Part shown: positions 392-36,708 of the stretch, piece by piece
How positions within the stretch are numbered: the first letter of the stretch is position 1
Layout: every line of letters begins with the position of its first letter
NCBI GenBank assembly: GCA_035628335.1
Contig: DASPKA010000048.1
Span: 1 to 37,442 of the forward strand
DNA: 37,442 nt
Direction of reading: 5' to 3'
Origin: Patescibacteria group bacterium
GTDB lineage: Bacteria > Patescibacteriota > Doudnabacteria > UBA920
Position numbers and translations under genes: made by a program
The notes under the pieces: model-generated
Seen by the model: the letters and a program-made list of their open reading frames with translations, nothing else
What the model was told of the DNA's origin: nothing
Database searches by the model: none

Positions 392-685
392 TTATAATGC
401 GTCAATTTGTAGGTTGCGCAGTTGATTTAAAGAGAGGCCTAAAATGTGCTTAGTTGCGAGTAGCTTCTTAGAGAGAGCAAACTGATCTTGATATTCGTCT
501 TTCAACCTTACGAACACATTCCCTTCAGAAGCGTCTGATTCACGCTTCATATGTAGGATTATCTTTTTCCTGTTGAGCATCTTGCCCACAATTACTGCAT
601 CATCCGAACTCAACGCCTTTATATTTGGCGACTTCTCGTCTGATTCAAAAATCTGACCTATTTCAAACATTTCACTTATTCGCAT
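392..685 (-). CDS. Hypothetical protein (97 aa)
   Basis: ORF-track ORF only. No recognisable motif and a weak SD (gaaggt about 12 nt upstream). It lies between the REP-like hairpins and the grpE fragment. Confidence 0.35.
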   Translation of the reverse strand: MRISEMFEIGQIFESDEKSPNIKALSSDDAVIVGKMLNRKKIILHMKRESDASEGNVFVRLKDEYQDQFALSKKLLATKHILGLSLNQLRNLQIDAL

Positions 686-700
686 AGCAATTTATAACCT

Positions 701-788
701 TCAATTAATAATACTGTCGTTCTTTGTTATGACCACCTGCGAGGGACGTATAACCATATCACCAATAGTGTAGCCGGTTTGGTACTCT
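701..788 (-). pseudogene. Orphan duplicate of the last 28 codons of grpE
   Basis: The minus strand reads (MI)EYQTGYTIGDMVIRPSQVVITKNDSIIN*. The real GrpE C-terminus is EYQTGYTIGDMVIRPSQVAITKNDGPQQ*. Nucleotides 713-788 align with 878-953 (76 nt; I count 11 mismatches by eye, and the 24 nt next to the repeat are identical). Confidence 0.65.
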
Positions 789-796
789 ATCATAGA

Positions 797-865
797 GGCT
801 AGCGTCGCCCCCTCACTTCGGGCAGAGCCCTACGTGAGCCTCCCCCTCTCGCCGCCTTGCGGCTA
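797..865 (+). repeat. GC-rich structured repeat element, copy A
   Basis: Sequence ggctagcgtcgccccctcacttcgggcagagccctacgtgagcctccccctctcgccgccttgcggcta. It aligns along its full length with copy B (2200-2265) and with the reverse complement of copy C (4272-4339). Confidence 0.85.
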
Positions 866-1378
866 TTATTGCTGTGGACCGTCGTTCTTAGTAATTGCTA
901 CCTGCGAAGGGCGAATTACCATATCACCTATAGTGTAGCCGGTTTGGTACTCTTCTACTATTAAATTTTCTTCGTCGCCTGGGACGGTGCGGATGGCTTC
1001 GTGGAGGTTGGGGTCAAATTTTCTCCCTACAGATTCTATCTTTTTAACCCCTAAGCTTCCTAAAGCATCATTGAGCTGCTTAACAAGAGCACGTAACCCT
1101 TCTTGCCATTCCGAGTACCGCTTCTGGAATTCTTGAAATTCGCCCGTTCCTAACTCAGGCAAGTGTGTAAGGGCTTGCGTTAAGGAATCTAGGGCAGGCA
1201 GCAGTTTAACAATTGCTACCTGCTTTGAGAACAGCCCCAATTCCACATCTTCAGCGGTTCGTCTCCGTTTATAATTTTCAAACTCGGCAGCTGAACGCTT
1301 CCATGAGTCAAGGTATTGGTCGCGCTGCTTAATTACATCTTCCAAACTTTCTTCTGTAGTTTGTACTTTGTCGTCCAT
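866..1378 (-). CDS. grpE: Nucleotide exchange factor GrpE
   Basis: 170-aa ORF with the GrpE signature DSWKRSAAEFENYKRRRTAED and the C-terminal beta-domain HEAI...GYTIGDMVIRPSQVAI. It sits immediately downstream of hrcA (2-nt gap). Confidence 0.93.
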   Translation of the reverse strand: MDDKVQTTEESLEDVIKQRDQYLDSWKRSAAEFENYKRRRTAEDVELGLFSKQVAIVKLLPALDSLTQALTHLPELGTGEFQEFQKRYSEWQEGLRALVKQLNDALGSLGVKKIESVGRKFDPNLHEAIRTVPGDEENLIVEEYQTGYTIGDMVIRPSQVAITKNDGPQQ

Positions 1379-1380
1379 AA

Positions 1381-2160
1381 TTACTTAATAATTGTGATTA
1401 AAAATATTGAACCGCCTATTCCTAGTAATTTGGAAATGTATTCCATGAACGGTAAATTCTTCTCGTACTTCATGGACTTGGGACCTATTAGCCCAACCAC
1501 GCCCTTTTTGCCGTCTGGCAATTGAACCCCAGTAACGATTACCGAGTAATCACTCTTTGGAGTTAGTTGCAGTTCTTTACCTATATACGCCTGCGCTGTA
1601 CTATTTTGGTATTTTTGTATAAGGCCTTCAGCATGCTCGTCCAGGTTGTCGAAAAATTTGGAAATTTCTTTCACATCTTCTTGGGGAAGTCCAGCCGCGG
1701 ACATAATATTAGACAAGCCAACCGCAGAAGTTTCGTCGGGAAGGAGGGTAAAAGAGGCGGCGTGTGTAGACTCTGCAAGCAGTTTAGCTAAACGCCTGCC
1801 AATCTCTGCGTTTATTCCCTGGAGCTTTAAGACTTCTGTCCGGAGGCGTTCCTGCTCTTGCATGGAGAGCTTAGTCTTCTCCATAAGCTGGTTTACAAAG
1901 TAGCGGAAACCTTTGTCTGTAGGAACACGGCCTGCTGAAGTGTGAGGCTGAGAAATGTACCCTTGTTGTTCTAGGTCCTGCATCTCATTTCGAATAGTTG
2001 CTGCACTGCACTCAAAATGGTACTTTTCAAGAATTTCTTTAGATCCAACCGGCTCCCCAGTCTCGCAGTTTTCTTTCACAACAGCTGCCAAAATTTTAGC
2101 TTGTCTTTGCGGAATCTGAACAAATAAAGGCTCCTTGTTTCTTGAAGGTTTTATTGCCAT
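1381..2160 (-). CDS. hrcA: Heat-inducible transcription repressor HrcA
   Basis: Contains AATIRNEMQDLEQQGYISQPHTSAGRVPTDKGFRYFVNQL (HrcA N-terminal winged helix). I trimmed the start to ATG 2158-2160 (MAIKPSRNKEP...) because the 20 upstream codons of the track ORF translate repeat copy B. Confidence 0.9.
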   Translation of the reverse strand: MAIKPSRNKEPLFVQIPQRQAKILAAVVKENCETGEPVGSKEILEKYHFECSAATIRNEMQDLEQQGYISQPHTSAGRVPTDKGFRYFVNQLMEKTKLSMQEQERLRTEVLKLQGINAEIGRRLAKLLAESTHAASFTLLPDETSAVGLSNIMSAAGLPQEDVKEISKFFDNLDEHAEGLIQKYQNSTAQAYIGKELQLTPKSDYSVIVTGVQLPDGKKGVVGLIGPKSMKYEKNLPFMEYISKLLGIGGSIFLITIIK

Positions 2161-2199
2161 ACTATAAATGTAAATCATTATTAGCACGACCATATACGG

Positions 2200-2265
2200 G
2201 GCTAGCGTCGCCCCCTCCATCGGCCATAAGCCTTATGGAGCCTCCCTCTCGTGCCCTTGGCACTA
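2200..2265 (+). repeat. GC-rich structured repeat element, copy B
   Basis: Sequence ggctagcgtcgccccctccatcggccataagccttatggagcctccctctcgtgcccttggcacta. Same architecture as copies A and C. It lies between the hrcA start codon and the CIRCE operator. Confidence 0.85.
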
Positions 2266-2305
2266 AGAGCATGCTTATAGTGGTTAACTTAAAGATAAAT
2301 CATTA

Positions 2306-2332
2306 TTAGCACTCTGTCAAGTAGAGTGCTAA
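2306..2332. promoter_or_regulatory. CIRCE operator (HrcA binding site)
   Basis: ttagcactc-tgtcaagta-gagtgctaa is an exact match to the consensus TTAGCACTC-N9-GAGTGCTAA. It lies upstream of hrcA. Confidence 0.92.
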
Positions 2333-2392
2333 TAATGTATGTTATCAAGAAAAAACCCGCCTTTCACTCCATTGGACGGTTTTTTCTATAGG

Positions 2393-3484
2393 TTAGGTCC
2401 AGCTGGGGAGTCTGAGAACAAATTTGGTACCATGAGGCTGCACCGGTGAATGGGTAAGGTTCCCTTTCAAGAGCGCTGCATACTGCGTGGCCAATCTAAG
2501 CCCCATGCCATGTGAGGTCTTGTTAAACATTTCGTTCTTCATATCTGCTTCTTTTTCTAACCCACCCATTCCCGGGCCATCGTCTTCCACTGAAACCTCA
2601 AGAACATTTTTTGTATGGGGGAGCCATACTGCGTTTACTTTCACATTCCCGCCTGGGAAAACAAACTTAAGTGCGTTATGAAGCAAAATATCGAAAATCT
2701 CTGTAGCTAAATTTGGGTCGGTCTGCGCGACGAATTCTGGAGTCTGCGTCTCAAAAGTTATAGTTATGTTTTTTGTTTTCGCCCATTGTTCGTAACTATG
2801 TTTCCGCTGTTCAAAAAGTTTCACAAAATCCATAGACATAACTTCTGGTTGTATAATGCCGCCCTCAAGTTTTGTTGCGTTTAACAAGTCTTTAGCTACT
2901 CTGCATAAATTTAAATTTGCTTCATACGCAGACAATAGGTATGACTTCATACGTTCAGGAATCGCCTGCTTTTCTGAGAGTGCAAGAGCCAATTCCAAAT
3001 ATCCTTGAGACACACCTGCAGGGGTCTTGATCTGATGCGCAGCCATGGAAACCAAGGAGCTTTGCATGTCTTTGACATTGAACATTCGCTCGGCTTTACG
3101 TAACTTCACCACCCCTCCAAGAACTTCGCCTGTTTCTAAATCTTTAACCGGTATGCTCTTTAACACCATAGGCATCATGGTGTCGTGCTTTGTGTGGTAA
3201 AAACAGAAGAACGGCAACATTTGAGTTATACCTGTATCGAACATTCTTTGAACCGGATGACTCGTAGGCGTAATGGCATCCCCCTCTACATTTGCCCAAA
3301 GAGGGATCGCATCAAAAAAATCCTTCCCGACCAACTCTGTATCATACACATCTAAGAGCGCCAATATCTTTTGGTTGGCCGATAAAATCTTCCCATTGGG
3401 GTCTAAAAAGGTCATTCCCTCTTCAAACGCATCTTCCACTAAAGCAGCGTGGAGTGCGTCTGCAGGGAAAAAATGGTAGGGCAT
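2393..3484 (-). CDS. Sensor histidine kinase, cytoplasmic (PAS-like N-terminus, HisKA, HATPase_c)
   Basis: H-box SMAAHQIKTPAG, G1 box VEDDGPGMG and G2 box GMGLRLATQY. No hydrophobic TM segment. A 3-nt gap separates it from the upstream response regulator. Confidence 0.88.
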   Translation of the reverse strand: MPYHFFPADALHAALVEDAFEEGMTFLDPNGKILSANQKILALLDVYDTELVGKDFFDAIPLWANVEGDAITPTSHPVQRMFDTGITQMLPFFCFYHTKHDTMMPMVLKSIPVKDLETGEVLGGVVKLRKAERMFNVKDMQSSLVSMAAHQIKTPAGVSQGYLELALALSEKQAIPERMKSYLLSAYEANLNLCRVAKDLLNATKLEGGIIQPEVMSMDFVKLFEQRKHSYEQWAKTKNITITFETQTPEFVAQTDPNLATEIFDILLHNALKFVFPGGNVKVNAVWLPHTKNVLEVSVEDDGPGMGGLEKEADMKNEMFNKTSHGMGLRLATQYAALLKGNLTHSPVQPHGTKFVLRLPSWT

Positions 3485-3487
3485 ATT

Positions 3488-4162
3488 TTAGAGTTTGTCG
3501 GACTTGATTCGGTATCCAATATTTTGCACTGTTTCTATAAAATCTGCATTTGCCTTTCGTAGTTTCCTGCGCAGGTTGTACATAACCACTTCTATAAGGT
3601 TGCTTTGATGTTCTTTATTGTATCCCCAGACGTGTTCTTGAATCATTGACCGAGTACAAACACGGTCCGCTTTACGAAGAAGGAAATCCAGCAATCTAAA
3701 TTCGTTTTTGGTTAGCTTTATCCTTACGCCGTTTATCAAAACTTCATGGGTCCCATACATAACTTCAACACCACCTATAGTGAATGTATTGCTTAGGACT
3801 TGTTTAGGACGCCTTAAGAGCGCACGGACTCGTGCAACCAGTTCGGTAACCGCAAATGGCTTGGTGACATAGTCGTCAGCTCCATTATCAAGCACATCTA
3901 CCACACTACTTAACTGGTCATTTGCTGTCAAGACTAAAATAGGAACAGAAATTTCAAGCTCACGAACTCGCTTGATTATCTCTTGCCCAGTCACGAAAGG
4001 CAAGTCCAAATCAACTATTAGCAAGTCATAATCCCGCACTTCTACGCGCTCTAATGCCTGCTTACCATCCAAAGCAGTGTCAACTACGTAGTTTTCCTCC
4101 TGCAAAACGGTCTTAATGAGCTCGCTCTGTTCTTTATTGTCCTCAATTATGAGTATTACCAT
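3488..4162 (-). CDS. OmpR-family response regulator (REC + winged-helix)
   Basis: REC domain MVILIIEDNK...YDLLIVDLDLP...LVLTA...KPF. C-terminal part LTKNEFRLLDFLLRK...VWGY...NLIEVVMYNLRRKL...IETVQNIGYRI. Confidence 0.9.
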   Translation of the reverse strand: MVILIIEDNKEQSELIKTVLQEENYVVDTALDGKQALERVEVRDYDLLIVDLDLPFVTGQEIIKRVRELEISVPILVLTANDQLSSVVDVLDNGADDYVTKPFAVTELVARVRALLRRPKQVLSNTFTIGGVEVMYGTHEVLINGVRIKLTKNEFRLLDFLLRKADRVCTRSMIQEHVWGYNKEHQSNLIEVVMYNLRRKLRKANADFIETVQNIGYRIKSDKL

Positions 4163-4271
4163 ATACTGGTGAAAATTAAGTCTAACTTCAGTATACCAGT
4201 ATAAATATGAAGAGAAAATGAATGGGGTATTAAAGATTAACTTTTATTACTAATTTATCTTTATCGATTTA

Positions 4272-4339
4272 TAGCGGCAAGGCCGCGAGAGGGGGAGGCT
4301 CCATAAGGGCTCTGCCCGTTGGAGGGGGCGACGCAAGCC
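4272..4339 (-). repeat. GC-rich structured repeat element, copy C (inverted orientation)
   Basis: The reverse complement reads ggcttgcgtcgccccctccaacgggcagagcccttatggagcctccccctctcgcggccttgccgcta. It lies upstream of the response-regulator gene. Confidence 0.85.
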
Positions 4340-4403
4340 CCTATAGTATAAGAGAAAATGAATGAGGTATTAAAGATTAACTTTTATACTATTAGTAAAA
4401 TAT

Positions 4404-4430
4404 AAAAAACCCGACATCACGTCAGGTTTT
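4404..4430 (-). terminator. Rho-independent terminator-like hairpin (minus strand), upstream of the RR-HK operon
   Basis: aacccgac-atcac-gtcaggtt. On the minus strand the stem is followed by tttttt. No annotated minus-strand gene lies upstream of it. Confidence 0.5.
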
Positions 4431-4697
4431 GCTTATTACGGAGTGCATACCCCCGTAGTTGTCCATGCTGGGCATGGGCTTAGATTCATGCTACATATGA
4501 AGTTGTTTAATTTAACGATACCCTTGGTTTGAACGCCTTGGGTTTTTATACTCGCCCAGAGGGCGCATTGCAAGCGAACGCTTGTGCGACGCTTTGTTCT
4601 TCGATGTTCTCATAATATTACTATATCGAACACACATTATTCTAAAATGAAAAGTACAGCAGTTAAGCTTAGATGAATTGCATATGAAAAAAATCTA

Positions 4698-4753: not shown

Positions 4754-5524
4754 ATGAAACAAAGCATCAGGGGGATGCTAACAACAGAGATGACGATCTC
4801 GTTATCTCTGCAGAAGCGTTGGAATAAAAAGAACTTAAACCCACTAAGCTACTTGCCAACAGAGCTAAAGGGACGCGGTATAACTCCCGAACAAAATAAA
4901 ATTGTAAATCAAGGATTCGGGGGAAAAGCGTCTGCGTATGCTGGGGGACAAGTAGATCTTCTACCACACTCCCCGTACGGATTGTGGCCGAAGGGTCGGT
5001 CAGTTCTATATTATGGTTATGGAAGGGGTTATGACCGCTCATTCATTCACCGAGTAGCTCATCGTGGTCTCCATACGGAGATCCATGATATTAGTACTGT
5101 TGCATGTCACAATGCTGAGCAGTACATTGAGAGTCACCGTGAGGAGTGGGGCGAATTCACACCTACTGTTACCGTGTCCGACGTGCGTTATTTCTCAGCA
5201 CTGCCACACCATGACTATGCGCTCATATACGCTTGCAGATTGCTAGGGGCACTTGATGATACTGACTTGCGTTTAACGCTTAACGGGTTTGGCAGGCACT
5301 TCCTGGACCAAGACCATCCCGTGCGGTTGGTTGTCATTGAAGCCTTTAGTAATGACAACCCTCATGTGGTCCAAGGTCCGACTATGCGGTTGCGACCGTT
5401 GTCATTGTTTGCTGATTACCTACAGCGGGGATCAGCACGCAAGATACAGGTTCTCCCCTCAAAAGACACCATTAGCTACTACCATAAACGGTATCGGCCA
5501 GTGGTCTTCATCCCCTATTACTGA
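4754..5524 (+). CDS. Hypothetical protein with class I SAM-methyltransferase-like motifs
   Basis: Strong promoter and SD. VLYYGYGRGYD resembles motif I (GxGxG). An acidic strand end, EIHDIS, follows about 20 aa later, then HHDYALIYACRLLGALDD (motif IV-like). The product assignment is tentative. Confidence 0.55.
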   Translation: MKQSIRGMLTTEMTISLSLQKRWNKKNLNPLSYLPTELKGRGITPEQNKIVNQGFGGKASAYAGGQVDLLPHSPYGLWPKGRSVLYYGYGRGYDRSFIHRVAHRGLHTEIHDISTVACHNAEQYIESHREEWGEFTPTVTVSDVRYFSALPHHDYALIYACRLLGALDDTDLRLTLNGFGRHFLDQDHPVRLVVIEAFSNDNPHVVQGPTMRLRPLSLFADYLQRGSARKIQVLPSKDTISYYHKRYRPVVFIPYY

Positions 5525-5580: not shown

Positions 5581-7740
5581 ATGCTGACTCTGACAAGTGC
5601 TCAAAAAATTTCACTCTTAAACCAGACTACGCTCAAGTGCTTTAGCACGCCGGACAAAACTCTTATTGCAAAACATTTTACTCGTTCCGCCTTAAAAATT
5701 TTGGGCGGTGATTTTGGATTTATGTGGTTCAAAGACAGATCTGGCGACTACTCTTTGGCATATAAATCCCCAAACCTTCCATATAACCCTATCCCCCCAC
5801 GTAAACACGGCATCAACAAACGAGCAGACAAAACCCGAAACCCGCAGTACCTAGAGAAAATTCCCTATCAAGACACAAAGTATGATGTTTCTGCATACAT
5901 GTCTAGCTTTGTAATAATTCCAATAACCTACCAGAATCGCATGTATGGTAATGCTGTAATCTGTTTTAAAAAACCCAAAAAATTTTCCGCTGAAGACAAA
6001 AGTCTCTGCGTCGCAGTAGGCAATGCAATCGCCCAGGCCTTGACCATCAACCGCCTTGTAGGGTCGCTCGCTGGGTACAAAAAAATAATTGACAGTACCT
6101 CTGAGGCGCTGCTAGTGTTAGACCCACAAACAAAAGCTGTTCTGTACTGTAACCCAGCAAGTCAAAGGTATGCACCTGAAGGGAAGACTCACGCTGACAC
6201 TCATATTAGCGAGATTTTTTCTTCGCTTAACATGGAAATGCTTTCAGCTGCTATTAAAAAAACCTTACAAGAAAATACCCGTCAGGAGTTTGAATCAACC
6301 ATAACAAACCCACAACGTACGGTGCTTCAAATTGCCATTGAGCCACTACGAAACTCGCCCTGGGGTACTGTTGTTGTGCTATTGGTTCACAATATTACGG
6401 AACGCAAAAAAACATTTCAGAAAATTAAGCGACTAGCATACTACGACCGCCTGACAAGTATGCCCAACCGTATGCACTTTGAAGAGGACTTAGTAGCTGA
6501 AGTAGAAACGGCTCGCAAAAACAGCCAGACGTTCTCACTCATCCTTATAGACTTGGACCGGTTTAAGTTTATTAACGATTCTCTCGGCCACCGAGAAGGT
6601 GACAGAGTGCTTCAGGAAACTGGCAAGCGGCTGAAAAAATGTATACGTTCATCTGACAGTGCGTACCGAATAGGTGGCGATGAGTATGCCATAATCATAC
6701 GCGACCAAAACTCGAAACAAGCAGCGGTTACTGTATGCGAAACCATACTCCGACTCCTTGAAATGCCTATGGAAGTAGGTGCACATGAAGTGTACTCCAC
6801 CGCATCTATTGGACTCGGATTTTACCCAACTGATGGAAAAGATTTTGACACATTGCTACGCCACACAGACTATGCATTGTACTTAGCAAAAGAGGCAGGA
6901 GGCAACACCTATATGGGGCTTCCGCTGAACTCCACAGATGTCAAACCCCAAGACAATTGGCAGCTAGACGCTGACCTTCGCAAAGCAATATCACGAAACG
7001 AATTCGTATTTTACTACCAACCTATTTTTACCCTCTCAGAGCCACACACTACAACCCAACTAGAAGCCATACTCCGTTGGAATCACCCTAAGCGGGGTCT
7101 TGTGATGCCGGTTGCGTTTCATAAGTACTTAGAGGCCTCAGGGTTAATTGTGGGTTTAACCGAATGGCAGTTTAATCAGGCGTGTGAAATGATACTCAAT
7201 CTGAGAGCGGTAAAGTTAGAAATTCCTATTTGTATAAATATTTCTGCGCGTCAACTATTGCAACAAAACTTTTTTCAGACAGTCACCTTCACGCTGCAAA
7301 AGCATGACATTGACCCCTCACTTATAAAGCTCGAACTTACAGAAACACTGTTGATAAAGAACTTAGAAGCCTCTCAAGAACTGCTTGCGAAATTTAGGAG
7401 TCTTGGATTTAGGGTAATGGTTGATGACTTTGGCACGGGGTATGCCTCGCTCAATTACCTTAAGGACCTTCGGGTAGACGGGATAAAAATCGATCGTTCG
7501 TATATTCAACATATTCATAAAAGTCCAATGGACCTTGCTATTGTGCGCGCGCTTATTTTTCTCTGCACGGAATCAGGTCTAGAGCTCGTAGCGGAAGGCG
7601 TGGAAACAACCCAACAAAAAGACATTTTGCTTAACGCAGGTGCAAACCTTGCACAGGGATACCTATACAGTGAGCCACTTGCAGCTGAAAAGTGTATTGA
7701 AATGATCACGAAAAAGAACAAGAAAAAAACCCGGGAGTAA
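5581..7740 (+). CDS. GAF-PAS-GGDEF-EAL cyclic-di-GMP signalling protein
   Basis: GGDEF domain: YYDRLTSMPNR...LILIDLDRFKFINDSLGH..GD...RSSDSAYRIGGDEYAII (GGDEY variant with RxxD five residues upstream). EAL domain: YYQPIF...LEAILRW...ELTE...DDFGTGYASLNYL...KIDRSYI...AEGVET..QGYLYSEP. Confidence 0.9.
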   Translation: MLTLTSAQKISLLNQTTLKCFSTPDKTLIAKHFTRSALKILGGDFGFMWFKDRSGDYSLAYKSPNLPYNPIPPRKHGINKRADKTRNPQYLEKIPYQDTKYDVSAYMSSFVIIPITYQNRMYGNAVICFKKPKKFSAEDKSLCVAVGNAIAQALTINRLVGSLAGYKKIIDSTSEALLVLDPQTKAVLYCNPASQRYAPEGKTHADTHISEIFSSLNMEMLSAAIKKTLQENTRQEFESTITNPQRTVLQIAIEPLRNSPWGTVVVLLVHNITERKKTFQKIKRLAYYDRLTSMPNRMHFEEDLVAEVETARKNSQTFSLILIDLDRFKFINDSLGHREGDRVLQETGKRLKKCIRSSDSAYRIGGDEYAIIIRDQNSKQAAVTVCETILRLLEMPMEVGAHEVYSTASIGLGFYPTDGKDFDTLLRHTDYALYLAKEAGGNTYMGLPLNSTDVKPQDNWQLDADLRKAISRNEFVFYYQPIFTLSEPHTTTQLEAILRWNHPKRGLVMPVAFHKYLEASGLIVGLTEWQFNQACEMILNLRAVKLEIPICINISARQLLQQNFFQTVTFTLQKHDIDPSLIKLELTETLLIKNLEASQELLAKFRSLGFRVMVDDFGTGYASLNYLKDLRVDGIKIDRSYIQHIHKSPMDLAIVRALIFLCTESGLELVAEGVETTQQKDILLNAGANLAQGYLYSEPLAAEKCIEMITKKNKKKTRE

Positions 7741-7754
7741 TTCCCAGGTTTTTT
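7723..7754. terminator. Bidirectional rho-independent terminator overlapping the GGDEF-EAL stop codon
   Basis: aaaaaaa-cccggga-gtaa-ttcccagg-tttttt. The stem has one mismatch. An A-run lies on one side and a T-run on the other. Confidence 0.7.
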
Positions 7755-10208: not shown

Positions 10209-13200
10209 ATGCCACTCAACCAAAATATTTTCAAAACGAGGCTCACATTAGTATCTTTTTTTCTTATTGCCACGCTCACTTTTTCCGGGCTGATGCAGAC
10301 TGTATACGCGGACACTGAACCAACACAGGAGGCAATGCAAGAGTTGCTTAATGAAATGGGCAGCAGTACACCGACGGCGCCACCAGGGAATACAGGAACA
10401 AGTTCACCAGAGATGCTGGAAACTGGAACCGCGACTCAAGAAACAGTTCTGGGAACTAGCGGTACTAGCACTTCTGAGGATTATGAAGCTCCTACTACAC
10501 AAGCCCCTAGGTTAGATGGGTGTATGACAGACCTTACTAACTATGGCACCTCACCTACTACAGGCACCGCAACTATCCCAAGCACCTCAGGCACTACCAC
10601 TCCTGAGCAGCCTTGTTTAGGGGGAGGTACAATTTCCGTAACAGACAACAGCTCAGGGACTGTTACCGTACAAAATAACACGGAGCTCCACATCATAAAC
10701 ACAAACGACATTGACGTAACCACAAACGTTGACACACTCGGGAACAGCGGTAATAACACCATCTCTGCCGGAGACGACATGAATAATGGAACGATCGAAA
10801 CTGGAAATATAAACATCTTTGCAAATGTGCTCACAGTTGCAAACAATAATATGGTTAACTCAGACATCGTACAGACTGTCCAAAACTTTAACACCCTCTC
10901 AACCTCCCTGTTCTTAAACCAAATCGAATCTGCACCTGAAGTAGTAGCGCAGGACCTGGTAACTGGAATGTGCGGAACCGCTCAACAAACAGTGGACGAT
11001 GACTCCACGCTTGACCTTAACTGCCAAAGCTACAGCCTCTTCCAGCTTACTAACAACAATACGGCCAATGTGCAAAACGATGTGTCCGGTTTGGGTCTCT
11101 CGGGCCAAAACCTTCTTTCAGCAGGTGATGGTATTAATAATTCAAATATAAAAACTGGAAATGTGAATGCGGTGGTTAATGTTATTAACTTTGTAAACAC
11201 CAACCTGGTTAACTCCCGACTTACCGTAGTAAACTTCAATGTGTTTGGTACATGGACAGGCGACTTAGTTATGCCTTCCCACTTATTCTTCGAACATGCC
11301 ATGACCGTAGGCAATTCTGCAGCTGCTGATCTCTCCTCTGTTTCAGAAGTAATTTTCAACATTGAAAATGAAAACGAAGCTGACATTACTAACAACATAA
11401 ATACTGGTGCAGGGTCTGGAGACAACCAATTGCTCGCTATGGGCACCAATAGTGATGTTAGAGCCAGCACTGCAGAAAGTGGGGCAGCAGCGAGCGGCTC
11501 AAATGTACAAAACATTGCCAACACAAACATAGTAAACGGTAAATGGTATCTTGGGCTTGTAAATATGCTTGGCAACTGGTCAGGTAACGTTTACTCCCTG
11601 CCTGGATTAGTGGCCATGGCTACCACGACCACAGGGCTCTCGTTCTTTGCTACAAACGCTGCTAACGCTGATGGAAGCTACCAAGCATTCTCAGAATCGC
11701 TTGCAAACATTAACAATCAAAGTACGGCCACTATAGATATACACAACCAAAATGACGCCACAGTCACAAACAATGTTGACCTTACCTCCTATACCGGCGG
11801 CAATGCTATAGCAGCGGGGGATGATGTAAAAAACTCAGCAATTTTTACCGGAAACAGTAAAGCCCTGGCCAACATATTAAACTTCGTAAATACCAATTTG
11901 ATTTCTGCTGATGTACAAGTAGGCATGATAAACATTTTTGGCCAATGGAACGGCAACATCACTTTTGGCTACCCTGACCTTGGAATAACTCAAACCGCAA
12001 CTCCGCCTATATTCCCAAACACACCGGGACAAACAGAACAAATTACTTTGTCGTATAAAAACACAGGGGATGGGTATATGAAAGACACGGAAATAGAATG
12101 GCACTATGACGCAAGTGCAATGAAGCCGCTGAACATAGGTACATACAATGGAACCATAACGCAGCCGGGCATAGCATTCTTCCCGCTCGGCCAAGTTATG
12201 CCCGGACAAAACGGAAATTTGCAATTAACCATTGAAAGCCTGAAAACTTTTACAGTTAACTCAACCGTGGATTCGTATGCCCGAATCTTTGGTAAAGGAC
12301 CGGAAATAAATATACTTAATAACGAGTCCCTACTACACTTACCAGTCTTGGCATTTGCTGGAACAACAACCAGCCCGGGAACCAGCACATCGCCTGGCAC
12401 GAGCACGCCTCCTGGTAATCCACCGCCAACTGGCGGAGGTGGAGGTGGAGGAGGAGGTGGCGGAAGTGTTGGTGGGGGAACACCTACCACAGGCCTCGTA
12501 ATAACCAAAGTCAACAACGCAATTGGGACAAAACATGCTGGAGATGTGATTACGTTCACTGTTAGCATAGACAACTACCTGCCGCATGCAGTTACGAATC
12601 TTGTGGTCTATGACACACTACGCGCGCCAGATGGGAGTGTAGTAATAACCAGAGAAATACCTATTCAAACCCTAAACCGCGGAGACGGTGCTGATATTTC
12701 ATACGAACTCCGTGTTACACAAAACGCACCTTCTGGTACATATGTAAACTCAGCATACGCAGAAGGCTTAGATGCAACGTTGCAGCCGGTGCGGAGCACC
12801 AATACAGCAACTAGTTCGTTTGTAGTAGACCGCGCTGGCGGACCCGGTGGCGGCGCGGGAGGCGGAGGTGGGGGGTCTACGGGCGGACCCGGTGGCGGCA
12901 CTGGGACCTCGACACCACCTTTTGAAGAAGTTGGAGGAACTAGCGAAGGCGGGATCAGTTTAGTTGGTACCAGTACCCCGGTAACACCGCAAGTCTTAGG
13001 CGTAGGAGCGACAGCAAGTCCATACGAAGGTAAACTTATCTGCATTCGTGGATCAAAAACTACCTACCTTGTCCAAGACGGACAGCTGCGGCCCATTACA
13101 CTCCAAGTATTCCAACAAAGAAAATACTCATTTAAAAATGTAAAAGTTATTAGTAAGGCGGAAGCGGCTGGATTAGAAATAGGCCCCCTGCTTCCTCCCA

Positions 13201-13385
13201 CTAACGCTACGCTAGTTAAGACATCTGCTAAAAAAGACAAGACACTGTACTGGACTATGGATGGACTCCTCCACCCTATTAACTATGGCTACTACATTGC
13301 CCACAATTTAAAAAAGCATCGCCTGTTTACGCTTAACGAAAGAGACTTAAAATCAATGCCATTAGGAGATGCCCTCATACAATAA
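10209..13385 (+). CDS. Large secreted surface protein (1058 aa): Thr/Ser/Pro-rich linker, four copies of the family repeat, two DUF11/CARDB-like domains, poly-Gly linkers and a C-terminal twin repeat
   Basis: N-terminal signal/anchor LTLVSFFLIATLTFSGLMQTVYA. Repeats: NSGNNTISAGDD, LSGQNLLSAGDG, GSGDNQLLAMGT, YTGGNAIAAGDD. DUF11-like segments: ITKVNNAIGTKHAGDVITFTVSIDNY...NLVVYDTL and TPGQTEQITLSYKNTGDG. Linkers: PGTSTSPGTSTPPGNPPPTGGGGGGGGGGGS and GGPGGGAGGGGGGSTGGPGGGTG. Confidence 0.85.
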   Translation: MPLNQNIFKTRLTLVSFFLIATLTFSGLMQTVYADTEPTQEAMQELLNEMGSSTPTAPPGNTGTSSPEMLETGTATQETVLGTSGTSTSEDYEAPTTQAPRLDGCMTDLTNYGTSPTTGTATIPSTSGTTTPEQPCLGGGTISVTDNSSGTVTVQNNTELHIINTNDIDVTTNVDTLGNSGNNTISAGDDMNNGTIETGNINIFANVLTVANNNMVNSDIVQTVQNFNTLSTSLFLNQIESAPEVVAQDLVTGMCGTAQQTVDDDSTLDLNCQSYSLFQLTNNNTANVQNDVSGLGLSGQNLLSAGDGINNSNIKTGNVNAVVNVINFVNTNLVNSRLTVVNFNVFGTWTGDLVMPSHLFFEHAMTVGNSAAADLSSVSEVIFNIENENEADITNNINTGAGSGDNQLLAMGTNSDVRASTAESGAAASGSNVQNIANTNIVNGKWYLGLVNMLGNWSGNVYSLPGLVAMATTTTGLSFFATNAANADGSYQAFSESLANINNQSTATIDIHNQNDATVTNNVDLTSYTGGNAIAAGDDVKNSAIFTGNSKALANILNFVNTNLISADVQVGMINIFGQWNGNITFGYPDLGITQTATPPIFPNTPGQTEQITLSYKNTGDGYMKDTEIEWHYDASAMKPLNIGTYNGTITQPGIAFFPLGQVMPGQNGNLQLTIESLKTFTVNSTVDSYARIFGKGPEINILNNESLLHLPVLAFAGTTTSPGTSTSPGTSTPPGNPPPTGGGGGGGGGGGSVGGGTPTTGLVITKVNNAIGTKHAGDVITFTVSIDNYLPHAVTNLVVYDTLRAPDGSVVITREIPIQTLNRGDGADISYELRVTQNAPSGTYVNSAYAEGLDATLQPVRSTNTATSSFVVDRAGGPGGGAGGGGGGSTGGPGGGTGTSTPPFEEVGGTSEGGISLVGTSTPVTPQVLGVGATASPYEGKLICIRGSKTTYLVQDGQLRPITLQVFQQRKYSFKNVKVISKAEAAGLEIGPLLPPTNATLVKTSAKKDKTLYWTMDGLLHPINYGYYIAHNLKKHRLFTLNERDLKSMPLGDALIQ

Positions 13386-15599: not shown

Positions 15600-15648
15600 A
15601 AGCCATCTTGTCCCGGTGTAGCAAAACAAGATGGCTTTTATTTTTTTA
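15600..15648. terminator. Bidirectional terminator between convergent genes
   Basis: aagccatcttgt (15600-15611)/acaagatggctt (15626-15637) is a 12-bp stem followed by tta-ttttttt. It overlaps the A2M stop codon. Confidence 0.75.
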
Positions 15649-18600
15649 CATTGGCTCTGCAGGTTTACCTTTCTGTATGTAACTCAGAAGTTTTACTTGC
15701 CATTCAGGGTTATGAAGCAGAACGAGGTAGAATATGAGGATGATAAGAATAATTGAACCGACAATACTCTTCCAACCTATACCCTCTTCAGTTACTCTAG
15801 TAAAGCTGAAAGCGCGTTCTGCATATGGTGGCTCAATATGGAACACTTGAGAGCCAGAATGTGCTGACTTGCCCGTGTACATAGTTTCATACATTACCGG
15901 AGGCGCTGTAAAGTCACCAGAGACAACCGCACGTGCTTGGTAGGAGTACTCCCGTTGGGACCCTCCACCATACCCCCAGTCATACATTTGTGAAATCCGC
16001 GCGCCTTCTAACGTAGTTTCGGCCCCCCAGTCTCCGTAGTAATAATGTTGTGAGTATCCGCCAGTCTTTTCGTTGAGCAAATTCTTATTAACCGGTATTA
16101 ACCCTGCGGGAAGTCGGTCTTCAATTACCGCGTAATCTGAAGACAGATCACCGCTTACTTTAATTTTTACATTTACTATATCTCCTACGCGGACCGCCCA
16201 ACCTTCATGCTCCGCATTTTCATATGTTCGTTCAAACTTTATCTTGGAAGAAACTGGGACTTTGTCTACATCAGTTCGCCACAGGCTTTCAACCAGCATG
16301 GAGTACAATGTACCTCCATTTGAAGCTACAGAAAGCTTACTTCCGTCAAGCGCAGGATCAATTTTTAGAGGAACAACAACTTCAGCTGTGGGGCTAGTAA
16401 TGTTGCCAGTGGCAAGCGTCTGAGAACCAAGCGTTACTGTGTACCCTGTATTTACTTTCGTACTTCCATCACTCGACTTTAGCAACGCAGAAACAACCTG
16501 GACTGTAGTATATGTGCTTACCCAGTAGTTCCTTTTCTTTTTCTGCGCCAGGAAGTTTAGAGCCTGAACAATTTGGTTCTTGTACCTGTCCTTCTGCTGC
16601 AACAAAGACTTTACCGCAAAAGCTGTGGATGCTTCTTCGCTCCCATAGTACACCCCAAGACCTGTTTTCCAGTGCATACTTGAACCTTCAGAGATTCCTT
16701 GTTTGAGCAACTCAGCATTCAATACATCTGCCTGTGCCGTGAAGCCATTCAATCGGTTAGTCATTGCAGCCATTGCCAACGTGTCTGGAGTTACGCCCGT
16801 CACATCTGTGATGGGGAACTTGTCTAGTCCGCTACCCAACAGCGCAAGCCCGTATGCTCGTAAAATTATGTTGGTCTTCTTTTCATATTCCGCTACCTCT
16901 TTCTCTGTTCTAACCCCGTCGTACCCAAACGTTGGGTAGTACGATGGGTTGTAGTTATGTATTTCAGTAGCAGAGTTTTCCAGATAGCTGCGTGCAGAAC
17001 GTAGCAGTGGTGTAGCTTCAGAAAAACCACGTGCTTCTGCGAGTTTCAAATACTCGACAACATATACTGTGTTAAACACATTTCCGTACCCGTCGTGCCA
17101 GTAACCCCAGGAGCCGTTAGGGTTTTGCAGTTCTTTAAGCTTAGAAATACCCACGCGCACCATATCATTAAGGTCTTTGCCTTCTGAGGCTTCCTTCAAA
17201 ATTTCAGGGTAACCCTGAGCAAGTAATACAGGAGCAAACCGACTCATGGTCTGTTCAACACAACCATACGGATAGTCGATTAAGTACCGCATGGCTTCTG
17301 GCACCTGTCCTACCATAGAAGCAGTTAAGACAAGCTTCGCCTTAGATAAATCATTAACCGCATCTTTTGGAAAACGGACAGTGAAGTCACCACTACCTTC
17401 CTTAATTTCTGAAACAAGTTCTTTTACTCCCGTATACCGAACTGGCAGTACTTGTTTGTATGAGTCAGAAAGCTTCTTGTCTTTTGTATCTGTGGCGTTA
17501 AACTGAAACTCTGCTGCTTCGCTCGCTTGGGTAGGTGTAACTTCAAACTCCAAAAGTTTAGACTTTTTATTTTGAAGTGCAACATGTTCACCCTGGATTG
17601 GAAGCACTTTTTTGCCTTCATAGGTTACATCTGCATTTATATCCAGTTCCTTACCAGAGTAGTTGCTTATATACGCAGCCAAAACAACTTTGTCTCCAAC
17701 CCGCAGTACATTTGGAACAATAGGTCGCATTATAAATGGCTTGGTGACCACGATCTCATTTTTTGTTTCACCAACCTGAGTTGCTGCATTCGCGGATACT
17801 GCCCGTATAACCCATGTTGTTAAATTGTCAGGCAACTTAAAAGTAACTGTGGCTTTACCATCCGCTCCAGTTACCACATGAGGGTTCCAGTAGGCAGTGT
17901 CTTTAAAGTTAGAGCGCACTGCTGTATCTCCCTTGTCGTTATGCGCAAGTATATGGCCTGCAAAGAAGTTATGTGTATTGGCAACAGTTAAGTTATATAC
18001 AGTCACCTCGCCCAAAACCCATTCTAACGACTCGACTGGGGCTGGACCTTTTTCTGTGAGCAATACATCACCAATTTGCAAATCACCCGCCGGTTTCCAT
18101 GCACCGCTTTCATAAAGCAAGTGGTTTGGTGTCACTTTGAGACTTCCGTTAATGAGTAGGTACCCCATATCTGACAACCTATGCGTTGCGGTAACCTTCT
18201 GAGAAACATATTTCCTGGCAGACTCGTCATATGACAAAACACTGTCTCCAACTAAAATGTCTTCTATATTTTTTACTGTACCCTCCGTAAGGGTAACCTT
18301 TGTACCAGCTACGAAACACCCGCCTCGCTCTGCACCACTGCTGTATGACTGCATGAGGCTATGGCGGTATGCAGTGTTTTGTCCTCGCTTAGAATAAAAG
18401 GAGTCAAAAATATGTTGCCTATTTTCAGTTGCAAGCTCATATATTGCTTTGTCTATAGAATAGAGCACTGTGTCAGCAGACACTGGCTTGCCGTTTTGAT
18501 CTGTCGTCACTACAGTTGCCCGTACATTGTCTCCTGGTCCGTAACTCTGTTTGTCAGTCTGTACTGAAACATTCAGCTTTTGTCCTAACGCAGAAACCTC

Positions 18601-20748
18601 AGCTTCAGCTGTAGTTGATCTTAAGTCGTAAGGACCAAACTCGTACCCTCGGGCAAAGATGTTTGGCATATAACTCCCTTCAACTGGGAATTCAGCCACT
18701 GCACGTCCGCCCGTTACCCGTACCACTTTGTAGTCCTTTACATAGTCACGCTCAATGACTAACAAGGCGTCATGGTCAGGTAGATTAGAGGTAAACTGAA
18801 GACGCATAGTTGCGTTCGGTTGGTAGGTTTGCTGGCTAAAAGCTAACGTCACACCTGCTTGCGTGTCCTGCTGTGACCACCAGAAGTCATACTCTCCACC
18901 AGAAACCCACTGGTTATATACAACACTGAAGTCTTTACCTGAAGTGTCTTTTCCAGTAAGAGTAAATGTATACGACCCTGATACCTGAGGGGTAAAGTTA
19001 TATGCAATTTTTCCAGAGTTATCGGAAATGAATTTTTGCGCCTTATAGTCTTCTGAGGTGCCTTTCCAGTCGCCGTTAACATACCCATGGCTCTCTCTGT
19101 GCACTTGCATAGTGACAGGTACATCAGGCAATGTTTTTCCCGCAAGGTCTGAGACCGTAAATACATGGTTGATAGGTTTTCCAGCAACGGCATAGTACCA
19201 ACCGTAGGTTGAACCAGCAATTGTTCTAGTAATCTTTATATTATTCTTTCGCACAAGCGCGCGGCTCATGGTTACGACCTGGTTTTGGGTGCGGTCTTTG
19301 TACGTAGCTTCCACAGAAATTACTTTTGCTGTTGTGCCTTCCGCAGACTCAGCAAAGTCTACTTGAGGCATATCTAACAACAGCTCTCCGTTTTCGTTTA
19401 ATCTTGCCGTACCTGAACCAACTTCATTACCACCGTAAAAGTAGTAATTAAGCTCATCTTCGCTGTCGCCATAATACCAGTTGTTATACACATCGTTAGT
19501 ATAAATGTGGTAACTTACTTCTTGGTCAGCAAGCGGGGGACCAAAAAAGTACTGGCCGGAAATCTTTGCTGTAATTTTTTCTGAAGCCGCATACGACATA
19601 CGGTCAAAAGAAGAGTCTAGTGTGTATTCTGGCTTACGGTACTCTTCAATCTGAACCGAAGTGTAATTCCCATAATTCCAATTATTATTTTCATTACTAG
19701 CTTGGTCTTGTATGGAGATCTGGAAATAACCAGTGCCCGAGTCTTTAGGTATAACCAACTTTCCAGCAACTGTACCATCCTTGGCTATTGTACTTGTCTG
19801 CTGTACTAGAGCCTCTCTCTCGCTCCAGTCTTTAAAGAGTTTAACATGCACAACACCGGACGGGAGTGTATACGCACCGTCATCGTCGTCACGGATAATT
19901 GCTTTGTAAGAAATAGTATCCCCTGGCTTGTATATAGGGCGGTCGGTTATAAAGTAAAATTTGCGAGAATTAAAGGTCGAACCAAAAGAACCAGTGAAAT
20001 TATAGTACGCGGTGCGAATATTGACTGGGATAAGGTTCATGTCACTTTCTGTCTCCACCAACACAAGCTCGGCGTTCGTGGAAATAGGCATGAAGCCTAG
20101 GTTGTTGTTCGAGACTGTAGCCTTACCTGTTTCCTTCGCTGCATCTTCAAAGGTATAAGCGGTTACGGTATAATCTTTTACCGTAGTACCTGTCTTAAGG
20201 TCCTGCACCCAGAACATATAGTCATCCTTTGTTTCCGTCATGACAGCTGCGTTTCTGGAACGGACAATAAAAGCACGGTCTATTGCACCGTCAGTAACCG
20301 TTTCAACTATATACACCGCGCTTTCTTTCAGTGGAAGCGTTATTTTGCCTTCGTTCTTTTTTAGATCTACGGTATTCTCAAATACCTTCACTGAACGGCT
20401 GTAGTCAGGTTTCGGAAACTTTCGTTTACTATTGTCTTTGCCGTCGTAAATCAAATACTTAAACAAGTCTTCTTTTGTAACTTCGTACAGGGAAAGTTTA
20501 ACCAGAGGACTCTTAGGTTCACTGTACCCGTAGTCGCCATTGTACATTAACTGAACCTCAGGCGCAGCGGCTGCGGACATAGGGATGATTTCAGACGAAG
20601 CCTGGTACTCTCCTCCGCTAATGAAGATCCGAGGTCCCTGCTGCACCTCATTAGGCGTTACAGCCTGGCTTGGATGAAAATAGAAAAAGGCAGCCACTGA
20701 CAAACCCAGCAGCACACTACTAAATAGAAATTTTCTTATGGTTAACAT
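15646..20748 (-). CDS. Alpha-2-macroglobulin family protein with thioester motif, internal Hint (intein-like) domain, N-terminal signal/anchor and C-terminal TM helix (1700 aa)
   Basis: Thioester motif YPYGCVEQTMSRF (GCVEQ = nt 17251-17265). A2M-family strand KLPDNLTTWVIRAVSAN. Long beta-rich MG-like N-terminal half. N-terminal FLFSSVLLGLSVAAFFYF and C-terminal IVGSIILIILIFYLVLL. Confidence 0.9.
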   Translation of the reverse strand: MLTIRKFLFSSVLLGLSVAAFFYFHPSQAVTPNEVQQGPRIFISGGEYQASSEIIPMSAAAAPEVQLMYNGDYGYSEPKSPLVKLSLYEVTKEDLFKYLIYDGKDNSKRKFPKPDYSRSVKVFENTVDLKKNEGKITLPLKESAVYIVETVTDGAIDRAFIVRSRNAAVMTETKDDYMFWVQDLKTGTTVKDYTVTAYTFEDAAKETGKATVSNNNLGFMPISTNAELVLVETESDMNLIPVNIRTAYYNFTGSFGSTFNSRKFYFITDRPIYKPGDTISYKAIIRDDDDGAYTLPSGVVHVKLFKDWSEREALVQQTSTIAKDGTVAGKLVIPKDSGTGYFQISIQDQASNENNNWNYGNYTSVQIEEYRKPEYTLDSSFDRMSYAASEKITAKISGQYFFGPPLADQEVSYHIYTNDVYNNWYYGDSEDELNYYFYGGNEVGSGTARLNENGELLLDMPQVDFAESAEGTTAKVISVEATYKDRTQNQVVTMSRALVRKNNIKITRTIAGSTYGWYYAVAGKPINHVFTVSDLAGKTLPDVPVTMQVHRESHGYVNGDWKGTSEDYKAQKFISDNSGKIAYNFTPQVSGSYTFTLTGKDTSGKDFSVVYNQWVSGGEYDFWWSQQDTQAGVTLAFSQQTYQPNATMRLQFTSNLPDHDALLVIERDYVKDYKVVRVTGGRAVAEFPVEGSYMPNIFARGYEFGPYDLRSTTAEAEVSALGQKLNVSVQTDKQSYGPGDNVRATVVTTDQNGKPVSADTVLYSIDKAIYELATENRQHIFDSFYSKRGQNTAYRHSLMQSYSSGAERGGCFVAGTKVTLTEGTVKNIEDILVGDSVLSYDESARKYVSQKVTATHRLSDMGYLLINGSLKVTPNHLLYESGAWKPAGDLQIGDVLLTEKGPAPVESLEWVLGEVTVYNLTVANTHNFFAGHILAHNDKGDTAVRSNFKDTAYWNPHVVTGADGKATVTFKLPDNLTTWVIRAVSANAATQVGETKNEIVVTKPFIMRPIVPNVLRVGDKVVLAAYISNYSGKELDINADVTYEGKKVLPIQGEHVALQNKKSKLLEFEVTPTQASEAAEFQFNATDTKDKKLSDSYKQVLPVRYTGVKELVSEIKEGSGDFTVRFPKDAVNDLSKAKLVLTASMVGQVPEAMRYLIDYPYGCVEQTMSRFAPVLLAQGYPEILKEASEGKDLNDMVRVGISKLKELQNPNGSWGYWHDGYGNVFNTVYVVEYLKLAEARGFSEATPLLRSARSYLENSATEIHNYNPSYYPTFGYDGVRTEKEVAEYEKKTNIILRAYGLALLGSGLDKFPITDVTGVTPDTLAMAAMTNRLNGFTAQADVLNAELLKQGISEGSSMHWKTGLGVYYGSEEASTAFAVKSLLQQKDRYKNQIVQALNFLAQKKKRNYWVSTYTTVQVVSALLKSSDGSTKVNTGYTVTLGSQTLATGNITSPTAEVVVPLKIDPALDGSKLSVASNGGTLYSMLVESLWRTDVDKVPVSSKIKFERTYENAEHEGWAVRVGDIVNVKIKVSGDLSSDYAVIEDRLPAGLIPVNKNLLNEKTGGYSQHYYYGDWGAETTLEGARISQMYDWGYGGGSQREYSYQARAVVSGDFTAPPVMYETMYTGKSAHSGSQVFHIEPPYAERAFSFTRVTEEGIGWKSIVGSIILIILIFYLVLLHNPEWQVKLLSYIQKGKPAEPM
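17938..18318 (-). other. Hint / mini-intein-like domain (aa 811-937 of the A2M ORF); +1 residue is Asp
   Basis: CFVAGTKVTL (block A; Cys codon 18316-18318), KVTPNHLL (block B, TxxH), VYNLTVANTHNFFAGHILAHN (blocks F/G; Asn codon 17938-17940). The next codon, 17935-17937, is gac = Asp. Confidence 0.85.
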
Positions 20749-27737: not shown

Positions 27738-27768
27738 AAAAACACTAGGGTAATGCTAGTGTTTTTGT
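27738..27768 (+). terminator. Rho-independent terminator after tRNA-His
   Basis: aaaaacactag-ggtaatg-ctagtgttttt followed by gtt. Confidence 0.75.
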
Positions 27769-36699: not shown

Positions 36700-36708
36700 T
36701 GTTTTTTT
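36676..36708. terminator. Bidirectional terminator overlapping both convergent stop codons
   Basis: aaaaa-aacactagg-tacta-cctagtgtt-ttttt. Confidence 0.75.

Follow-up and report, generated by a model that had tools for sequence, protein, structure and literature searches.

The DNA analysed here, a stretch of 37,442 nucleotides from a Patescibacteria group bacterium (GenBank assembly GCA_035628335.1, contig DASPKA010000048.1, positions 1 to 37,442), carries three copies of a structured element of about 77 nt; below, "the window" means this whole stretch. We hold with moderate confidence that it is a small gene-less mobile element, which is moved in trans and carries a portable translation-initiation module. 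The family of copies, their structure and the long target duplications beside them are seen directly in the genomes, and the position of the copies relative to start codons argues strongly for a ribosome-binding role. We file the element as a small non-autonomous interspersed repeat with two unusual properties, long duplications that repair the struck site and an apparent portable translation-initiation module.

Read along its C-rich strand, the element begins with an A/T-rich leader of about 8-10 nt, followed by hairpin H1 (GGGGC-TNGCGTC-GCCCC), hairpin H2 (CTCCA...tip hairpin...TGGAG), a C-rich linker CCTCCCCCTC, the variable 5-bp hairpin H3 with loop CTT, and a closing CTA. The original prediction, made from the letters of the window, had found the three copies at the right sites, and their limits can be extended to 789-865 (plus strand, copy A), 2188-2265 (plus strand, copy B) and 4272-4349 (minus strand, copy C). 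It had recognized two hairpins, both of which are real, but the count was too low: a third, 5' hairpin (H1) is present, and the leader, likewise overlooked, belongs to the element. Copy A has its leader at 789-794, H1 at 795-799/807-811, H2 at 812-816/834-838 with the tip at 820-823/827-830, the C-rich linker at 839-850 and H3 at 851-855/859-863, then TA. The corresponding parts of copy B are the leader at 2188-2197, H1 at 2198-2202/2210-2214, H2 at 2215-2219/2236-2240 and H3 at 2251-2255/2259-2263, again with TA behind it. The base differences reported between the copies can all be read from the sequence: the H3 stems are gccgc/gcggc in A, gtgcc/ggcac in B and gcggc/gccgc in C, the base of H2 is ctcac/gtgag in A versus ctcca/tggag in B and C, and its tip is gggc-aga-gccc in A and C versus ggc-cataa-gcc in B.

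With filters off, a covariance model run over the whole window returned only these three copies, with 64.3 (A), 60.9 (B) and 74.9 bits (C), and the next best match had 5 bits. The same model found no copy in the other 7.7 kb of the source contig, which is 45 kb long, so that three copies lie within 3.5 kb and none in the other 41 kb. Could such a cluster, no more than 4.4 kb from the contig start, be a chance similarity or an assembly artefact limited to the contig end? This explanation is already refuted, and practically no probability remains for it. The shared blocks GCGTCGCCCCCTC and GAGCCTCCC(CC)TCTCG each occur three times, against 0.23 and 0.09 expected, and three occurrences were reached in no shuffle. 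A second, independent assembly (Logan contig, SRR7003765) agrees at 100% identity along 1824 nt that contain copies A and B, and more than 120 loci lie elsewhere, in long-read metagenome-assembled genomes (MAGs), on megabase-scale contigs up to a 4.6-Mb chromosome-level MAG and in the genome of an isolate. The window copies differ mutually by 12-15%, with compensatory changes, and are thus not fresh copies of one another, yet the duplications that flank B and C are near-perfect.

The search for further copies showed a multi-copy interspersed element with hundreds of copies in several phyla. The exact pattern of its two blocks (GCGTCGCCCCCTC-N15-35-GAGCCTCCC, 22 bases) matched at least 119 stretches in a collection with one genome per species. 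The three window copies are joined by more than 150 in the fetched loci (numbered with L below); the element is about 77-135 nt long and without ORF (open reading frame). Among the matches listed, most are Nitrospirota MAGs, including a 4.6-Mb Manganitrophaceae chromosome, and others are Syntrophus, Syntrophorhabdus, Syntrophobacterales and "delta proteobacterium" MAGs; two scaffolds of the isolate Syntrophorhabdus aromaticivorans UI match as well. The Nitrospirota and deltaproteobacterial assignments are backed by megabase contigs. Single matching contigs are assigned to Acidobacteria, Bdellovibrionales, Ignavibacteriales and Marinamargulisbacteria. Four more matches are JGI metagenome contigs of 39-49% GC, found with a separate pattern specific to the window subfamily, and one IMG/VR match (L122:1105-1192, UViG 2721755143_000001) lies on a 24-kb putative viral contig. 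A near-identical core is present in a Patescibacteria-like genome with 43% GC, which suggests that the element has spread horizontally among lineages that occur together in groundwater and sediment.

No family met in the searches accounts for these copies. In Rfam 15, run on the window and 18 loci, only tRNAs reached the gathering score and the element was unmatched. An E-value scan of 600-4600 gave no Rfam match overlapping the three copies; two sub-threshold matches (RF02621 and RF02450) enter the duplication arms by a few bases with their 3' ends. Blastn of the long-form consensus against plasmid and phage collections yielded one 32-nt chance-level match only, and the literature searched held no description of the element and no paper with its core sequence.

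Several sub-variants exist. Many Nitrospirota and deltaproteobacterial copies carry after H3 a further hairpin of about 18 bp with a GTAG foot (H4), and others have a CACCC..GGGTACCCG hairpin between H1 and H2. An extra hairpin between H1 and H2 was observed in L068, L071, L076, L078 and L118 (for example CACCCGCAAGCGGGTACCCGG); in L071, which belongs to the isolate S. aromaticivorans UI, 2.5 tandem units of about 105 nt mix both forms. Tandem arrays are found at L070:373-934, with four element-plus-spacer units at 163-nt spacing, and at L045:4172-4593, with three units at 198- and 151-nt spacing; in the subfamily of these two loci H3 is replaced by CCCCTTC-ATAAAAA-GGAAGG. The minimal unit is set by L125, where two copies abut directly with an 80-nt period.

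The original prediction had taken the paired differences among three copies as a hint of selection on secondary structure, and with about 100 copies aligned compensatory changes are abundant. When 103 copies were aligned with MAFFT, blind to structure, H2 proved to be 93% paired and 6 of its 10 pairs are changed on both sides; one column pair, for example, is CG in 42 copies, GC in 13, UA in 11 and AU in 8. When the partner is slid by one column, pairing in this alignment falls from 87% to 41-49%. None of 500 shuffles reached the whole-structure covariation measures, and 2 of 500 reached the count of pairs changed on both sides. The model-based alignment (92 copies) agrees, with 90% of cells paired, 13 of 20 pairs compensatory and all five H3 pairs covarying. 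Hairpins H2 and H3 are strongly supported by this covariation. H1 never varies in the aligned copies, and being invariant it is neither supported nor contradicted.

Which strand is functional? The G-rich strand folds more stably in all 92 copies, and in H2 the C-rich strand has 25 A-C mismatches, each a G-U pair on the G-rich strand, against 12 G-U pairs of its own. Both observations agree with a functional G-rich strand, though weakly, because G-rich strands generally behave so. The key lead was the reverse-strand motif GAGGGGGAGG, pointed out in the original prediction for its resemblance to a very strong Shine-Dalgarno sequence: the G-rich strand proves to be gene-sense and often abuts start codons. 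Once homologous loci are collapsed, 109 independent sites remain, and relative to co-directional flanking genes the element is antisense in 41 cases and sense in 9 (p = 5.6e-6). On the G-rich strand a long ORF with a mechanically called start begins no more than 30 nt from the leader in 33 of 102 loci, compared with 6 of 98 on the other side (p = 1.9e-6).

These start-proximal copies fall into two classes. In class 1 a native Shine-Dalgarno sequence stands right after the leader and the AUG follows 18-25 nt after GCCCC. In class 2 GCCCC and the AUG are separated by 6-11 nt, and a further Shine-Dalgarno sequence is missing. The class 2 starts are certainly not calling artefacts: they include, at 6-10 nt, MCGIAGI... 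of an amidotransferase of class II that requires Cys2 at its N-terminus (L011), MLLAIDIGNTNIVLG of CoaX (L027), M..ILDFGSQYTQ of GuaA (L097), MKNKLHILIVEDE of a response regulator (L079) and MKIRLNGEE of ThiS (L020). The alaS leaders of two Nitrospirota MAGs (L032:6951-7500 and L064:4951-5520) have flanks that are 95% identical, and the 75 nt from GAGGGGGAGG to the AUG are 100% identical. Farther upstream the H3' and H4' modules and partial copies cannot be aligned and are wholly different, which indicates rapid module turnover. Since class 2 starts have no native Shine-Dalgarno sequence and this alaS core is identical, the initiation signals must come from the element, and in many genomes it probably supplies the ribosome-binding region of the adjoining gene.

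The sole Shine-Dalgarno-like sequences of such leaders are GGAG(G) at the H2'/H1' junction and GAGGGGGAGG upstream of H2'. We propose that the functional strand is the G-rich one, 5'-[H3'] GAGGGGGAGG [H2': CUCC..GGAG] [H1': GGGGC-GACGCNA-GCCCC] UnUAAUAG-3', which would be transcribed within the mRNA of the neighbouring gene and act as a portable translation-initiation region. In the linear sequence GGAG(G) is about 22 nt from the AUG; by the model, once H1' folds, the motif at its foot would come to about 9 nt from the start codon behind the A/U-rich leader. In predicted folds of the leaders H2' and H1' are adjacent, and the leader and AUG are unpaired. The same folds pair GGAG with CUCC at the base of H2', in a long and GC-rich helix, so the CUCC strand may sequester GGAG, and regulation by such sequestration is conceivable. 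For an RNA thermometer, in which a weak, meltable hairpin right before the regulated gene pairs the Shine-Dalgarno sequence, the pairing of GGAG is seen, but the helix is long and rich in GC, and in the window copy B ends 27 nt before the hrcA AUG. An outward promoter, for which the TATAAT-like leader on the G-rich strand was considered, was rejected: the hexamer, TnTAAT, is a poor -10 box with a non-conserved second base, no -35 box accompanies it, and at 2-4 nt from the AUG it would stand too close to it.

Direct repeats that abut the element bear on its mobility. Repeats of 17-83 nt, counted where the left copy ends at the leader, were found at about 18 of 128 evaluable copies, compared with 1 of 1194 mismatched-flank controls. 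Perfect ones measure 83, 67, 55, 47, 40, 30, 29 and 27 nt, and three more measure 17 nt. The leader side of the insertion is sharp to about 2 nt. On the H3 side there are always 5-45 nt of unrelated filler before the repeat; with the sole exception of L112 the fillers are not a diverged continuation of the duplication, and no template for those of the window was found elsewhere in the window. No sequence motif is visible at the duplication edges.

Many of the duplications restore what the insertion struck. The one in L058 rebuilds a tRNA-Lys gene with its promoter, that in L112 the 3' half of a tRNA with the terminator, and the 51-nt duplication in L063, where the copy is just downstream of rplL, the last 17 codons of this gene; in the window the last 25 codons of grpE are rebuilt. 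A long duplication would thus make the insertion non-disruptive by rebuilding the struck gene end, tRNA or start region. This pattern suggests that the mechanism readily makes long duplications and that the survivors are those insertions whose duplication restores an intact gene. Insertion can recur at one place: in L087 a site was struck twice by different variants (X-E1-X-E2-X), and L012 and L006 contain variants piled head to tail, with several copies within 2 kb in each of these three loci.

The diverged duplications differ almost only at synonymous sites: codon position 3 accounts for 9 of the 11 differences in the window and for all 5 in L077. The filler of L063 starts with TTG AAG TAG and the native gene has CTA AAA TAA, both reading Leu-Lys-stop. 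Decay of an untranslated copy does not predict such a pattern; it would follow if homologous recombination with diverged strains took place later and the exchange ended within the duplication.

The duplications also bear on the class of the element. The original prediction had proposed a structured element resembling a miniature inverted-repeat transposable element (MITE) or a repetitive extragenic palindromic (REP) sequence, or else an RNA; the interspersed structured repeat stands, but it is neither a classical MITE nor a classical REP. Small size, lack of coding capacity and many copies suit a MITE, but terminal inverted repeats are missing, and so is a short fixed duplication, the repeats being variable at 17-83 nt. 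A classical REP was rejected because the element makes long target duplications and has no recurrent neighbour in its neighbourhoods that resembles a RAYT (REP-associated tyrosine transposase); REP-like traits are the GTAG-footed H4 of the long form and the existence of mosaics, and the core of the element and the window copies have no GTAG-footed palindrome. A rival explanation is a hairpin mosaic of the REP/BIME type (BIME, bacterial interspersed mosaic element), moved by a RAYT transposase of the HUH type and serving, between genes, mainly in stabilisation, termination or processing of mRNA 3' ends instead of translation initiation. The modular build with its extra hairpins (H4 with the GTAG foot, CACCC..GGGTACCCG) speaks for it, as do the intergenic, tandem and mosaic arrangement and the quick reshuffling of modules between close relatives. 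It is nevertheless improbable, since HUH transposition gives no target duplication and duplications of 17-83 nt are frequent here, no RAYT-like ORF recurs near the copies in the neighbourhoods examined, and the class 2 starts, 6-11 nt after H1 with no other Shine-Dalgarno sequence, are left unexplained.

What, then, moves the element? All-against-all clustering of 1886 ORFs from 119 neighbourhoods produced housekeeping families only, and Pfam scans of 20 window ORFs showed no transposase, reverse transcriptase or integrase domain. Two ORF clusters near copies were rejected as artefacts, namely ORFs reading through the element (peptide ...EGATxAP...). A parent insertion sequence (IS) sought in the neighbourhood ORF clusters was not found. 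With no gene of its own and neither a partner family nor a mobilising domain found, the element is considered non-autonomous.

Two insertion sequences, IS1549 and IS1634, generate direct repeats whose length varies from 8 to 514 bp (PMC2266710). No other documented precedent for duplications such as those seen here is known in bacteria. A MITE-like derivative could accordingly be moved in trans by a DDE transposase of the IS1634/IS1549 type, which would cut the target strands far apart. We regard this as unlikely: beyond TAG...CTA there are no terminal inverted repeats, filler DNA stands at one junction only, and no such transposase was found in 120 neighbourhoods or in the window. Membership in the IS1634 family itself was rejected, for although the long variable repeats do match, the element has no ORF and the window no transposase domain.

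A different source of variable duplications would be retroposition resembling that of a short interspersed nuclear element (SINE). Here the G-rich strand would be transcribed and its conserved 3' end (H2' base, H1' and leader) copied by a reverse transcriptase at a nicked target. In the sense RNA it is indeed the 3' end that is conserved, and variation, filler and truncations fall at the 5' end; moreover, duplication length varies, and different sequence variants cluster locally. Against this, no reverse transcriptase was found nearby, no such bacterial mechanism is known outside group II introns and diversity-generating retroelements (DGRs), and the evidence is all anatomical, so that we give this explanation a low probability. 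Its fullest form, a bacterial SINE-like retroposon spreading by target-primed reverse transcription in trans, whose own ribosome-binding module makes insertions before genes tolerated, is a still bolder proposal and very unlikely; if true, it would be the first class of non-intron retroposons in bacteria, common to several phyla including Patescibacteria.

The local clustering, strong in the window and in L087, L012 and L006, would also fit replication template switching with no dedicated enzyme. A nascent strand would jump to a nearby copy, be released at the stable end hairpins and re-anneal upstream, leaving a duplication and filler; the variable duplications and fillers and the absence of terminal inverted repeats and of a partner gene agree with this. 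But the clustered copies are different variants (85-88% identity) and not fresh copies, and the cross-phylum spread together with the sharply conserved leader end suggests specific recognition. This explanation is accordingly doubtful, with only a slim chance of being correct.

A gene-less element moved in trans and carrying an initiation module is the reading that we prefer, and several points weigh against it. Neither the neighbourhoods nor the window hold a candidate mobilising enzyme, and terminal inverted repeats are absent, the ends sharing only TAG...CTA beside unrelated hairpins. About 85% of copies have no detectable duplication, and no empty site was found for any copy. The best relatives of the window GrpE, with Candidatus Doudnabacteria among them, are 51-57% identical, many window ORFs have no Pfam match, and the databases contain no close relative of the window organism; together with the few Shine-Dalgarno-like motifs mentioned below, these features indicate a Patescibacteria-like host. 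A degenerate pattern for the grpE repeat found nothing in the JGI metagenomes, and blasting flank against flank across all loci returned only filled homologous pairs. The apparent invariance of GCGTCGCCCCCTC and GAGCCTCCC among the genomes is in part a product of the search, which asked for exact matches, and some phylum assignments of MAGs from single contigs may be binning errors. As for the translational role, it is read from position and orientation, the ORF starts were called mechanically, and the wobble counts (25 versus 12) favour the G-rich strand only mildly. Within the window no copy abuts a start codon, the nearest being B, 27 nt from hrcA, and a Shine-Dalgarno-like motif precedes only about 6 of 25 window ORFs, although those present are strong (AAGGAGG). 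With so few such motifs in its genes, the copies are best seen as tolerated insertions in this host, and they look like tolerated passengers.

The flanks of L017:7608-7696, from a Nitrospirae MAG, and of L063:4635-4722, from a Deltaproteobacteria MAG, are 74-78% identical to each other.

The window copies lie beside grpE (866-1378, minus strand), hrcA (1381-2160, minus strand) and a response-regulator gene (3488-4162, minus strand), as had been noticed. The link to regulator and chaperone genes that was drawn from this context holds in the window but is not a property of the family.

Copy A follows grpE in sense orientation. Its 76-nt duplication (86% identity) has a left copy at 713-788, which is the displaced 3' end of grpE (...KNDSIIN*, running into 700-712), and a right copy at 878-953 within the functional grpE ORF. 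The minus strand of the 12-nt filler at 866-877 (annotated on the plus strand) encodes the last three codons and the stop of grpE (PQQ*). The functional gene traverses the right-hand repeat and its stop codon in the filler touches the element, so copy A has replaced the last three codons of grpE. A template/variable pair of a DGR was considered for this repeat and rejected, as the 11 differences involve all four bases and are not adenine-specific.

Copy B lies between the hrcA start (2160) and a perfect CIRCE operator (controlling inverted repeat of chaperone expression; TTAGCACTC-N9-GAGTGCTAA) at 2306-2332 upstream of hrcA, which has TTGACA in its spacer. The 17-nt duplication TAAATCATTATTAGCAC is identical at all 17 positions; its left copy is at 2171-2187 and its right copy, at 2296-2312, overlaps a CIRCE arm (2306-2312). 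A second copy of this arm is left at 2181-2187 (GTGCTAA on the minus strand). The 30-nt filler (2266-2295, plus strand) has no template elsewhere in the window. Insertion B has moved CIRCE 125 nt farther from the hrcA start. The copy ends 27 nt before the hrcA AUG, which is 38 nt after GCCCC, and its G-rich strand is in hrcA sense; among the window copies only this one fits the upstream-of-gene pattern. If transcription starts at the TTGACA inside CIRCE, copy B would be part of the hrcA leader, and an effect on HrcA/CIRCE control is possible.

Copy C sits between genes in a divergent promoter region, bounded by the response-regulator start (4162, minus strand) and an ORF at 4754-5524 (plus strand), which it faces at a distance of 400 nt. 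One copy of its 38-nt duplication is at 4210-4247 and the other at 4350-4387 (97% identity), and the 24-nt filler at 4248-4271 (minus strand) has no template elsewhere in the window. Each copy of this duplication holds the ATG of an ORF of 11-15 codons (4218-4265 and 4358-4405, plus strand; MNGVLKINFYY* and MNEVLKINFYTISKI*), preceded by AAGAGAAA, which could be a leader peptide or chance.

Other features of the window are separate from the element. At 15646-20748 (minus strand) there is a 1700-aa homologue of bacterial alpha-2-macroglobulin (MG2, bait region, A2M, TED, bMG10), interrupted at about aa 803-937 by a Hint/intein-like domain with PT-HINT, Hint and Intein_splicing matches. A 29-nt terminator-like palindrome (AAAAAC-stem-loop-stem-GTTTTT), bidirectional in shape, occurs in three copies at 7725-7753, 27738-27766 and 36678-36706. 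Short repeats of the GGCGG(A/C)CC(C/G)GG type at 12837-12904 encode a glycine-rich stretch inside a 1058-aa ORF (10209-13385) without Pfam match.

The element is a new structured nucleic-acid motif, well supported and absent from Rfam, and it combines two features that usually occur apart in bacterial small repeats: long, variable, repairing duplications and a sense-strand module at the ribosome-binding position, which it occupies even before such essential genes as alaS, guaA and coaX. If the proposed role holds, genomes in at least two phyla outsource translation initiation of many genes to a mobile element, and the element would itself serve as a portable ribosome-binding-site part of natural origin. 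The insertion signature points to a mechanism of transposition or retroposition not yet characterised in bacteria.

How does the element compare with known systems? IS1634 and IS1549, which are IS4-related DDE elements, share with it the long variable direct repeats made on insertion. In contrast, they are 1.5-2 kb long with a transposase gene and terminal inverted repeats, and the element, at about 80 nt, has neither and shows filler at one junction. REP, BIME and REPIN sequences are likewise short GC-rich intergenic hairpin modules in many copies with mosaic and tandem arrangements, and the long form of the element ends, like them, in a GTAG-footed palindrome. REP sequences are linked to RAYT genes and leave no target duplication, in both of which the element differs, as it does in its sense-strand bias and its abutting start codons.

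The Correia, ERIC and RUP elements, MITEs with an influence on the expression of adjacent genes, and the 'putative mobile promoters' (PMC3575422) resemble the element as small non-coding repeats upstream of unrelated genes, sometimes across distant taxa, that supply expression signals. Correia-type elements have inverted ends and a TA duplication, and the element has neither. Mobile promoters, defined at -150 to -50 from the start codon (PMC3575422), supply a promoter, whereas the element lies at -10 to -90, where it seems to provide the ribosome-binding region. With SINEs and other retroposons without long terminal repeats it shares a conserved 3' end, a variable 5' end, variable duplications and the lack of coding capacity; this is a likeness in anatomy alone, no partner reverse transcriptase being known for the element. 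To our knowledge nothing SINE-like has been described in bacteria.

For the translational role the nearest parallel is in phage T4, where genes 38 and 25 have hairpin-bridged ('split') Shine-Dalgarno sites. By analogy, the Shine-Dalgarno sequence of the element, about 22 nt from the AUG in the linear sequence, would be brought near it by a stable hairpin. The T4 sites, however, are single fixed loci, and the element is a mobile module present in many copies.

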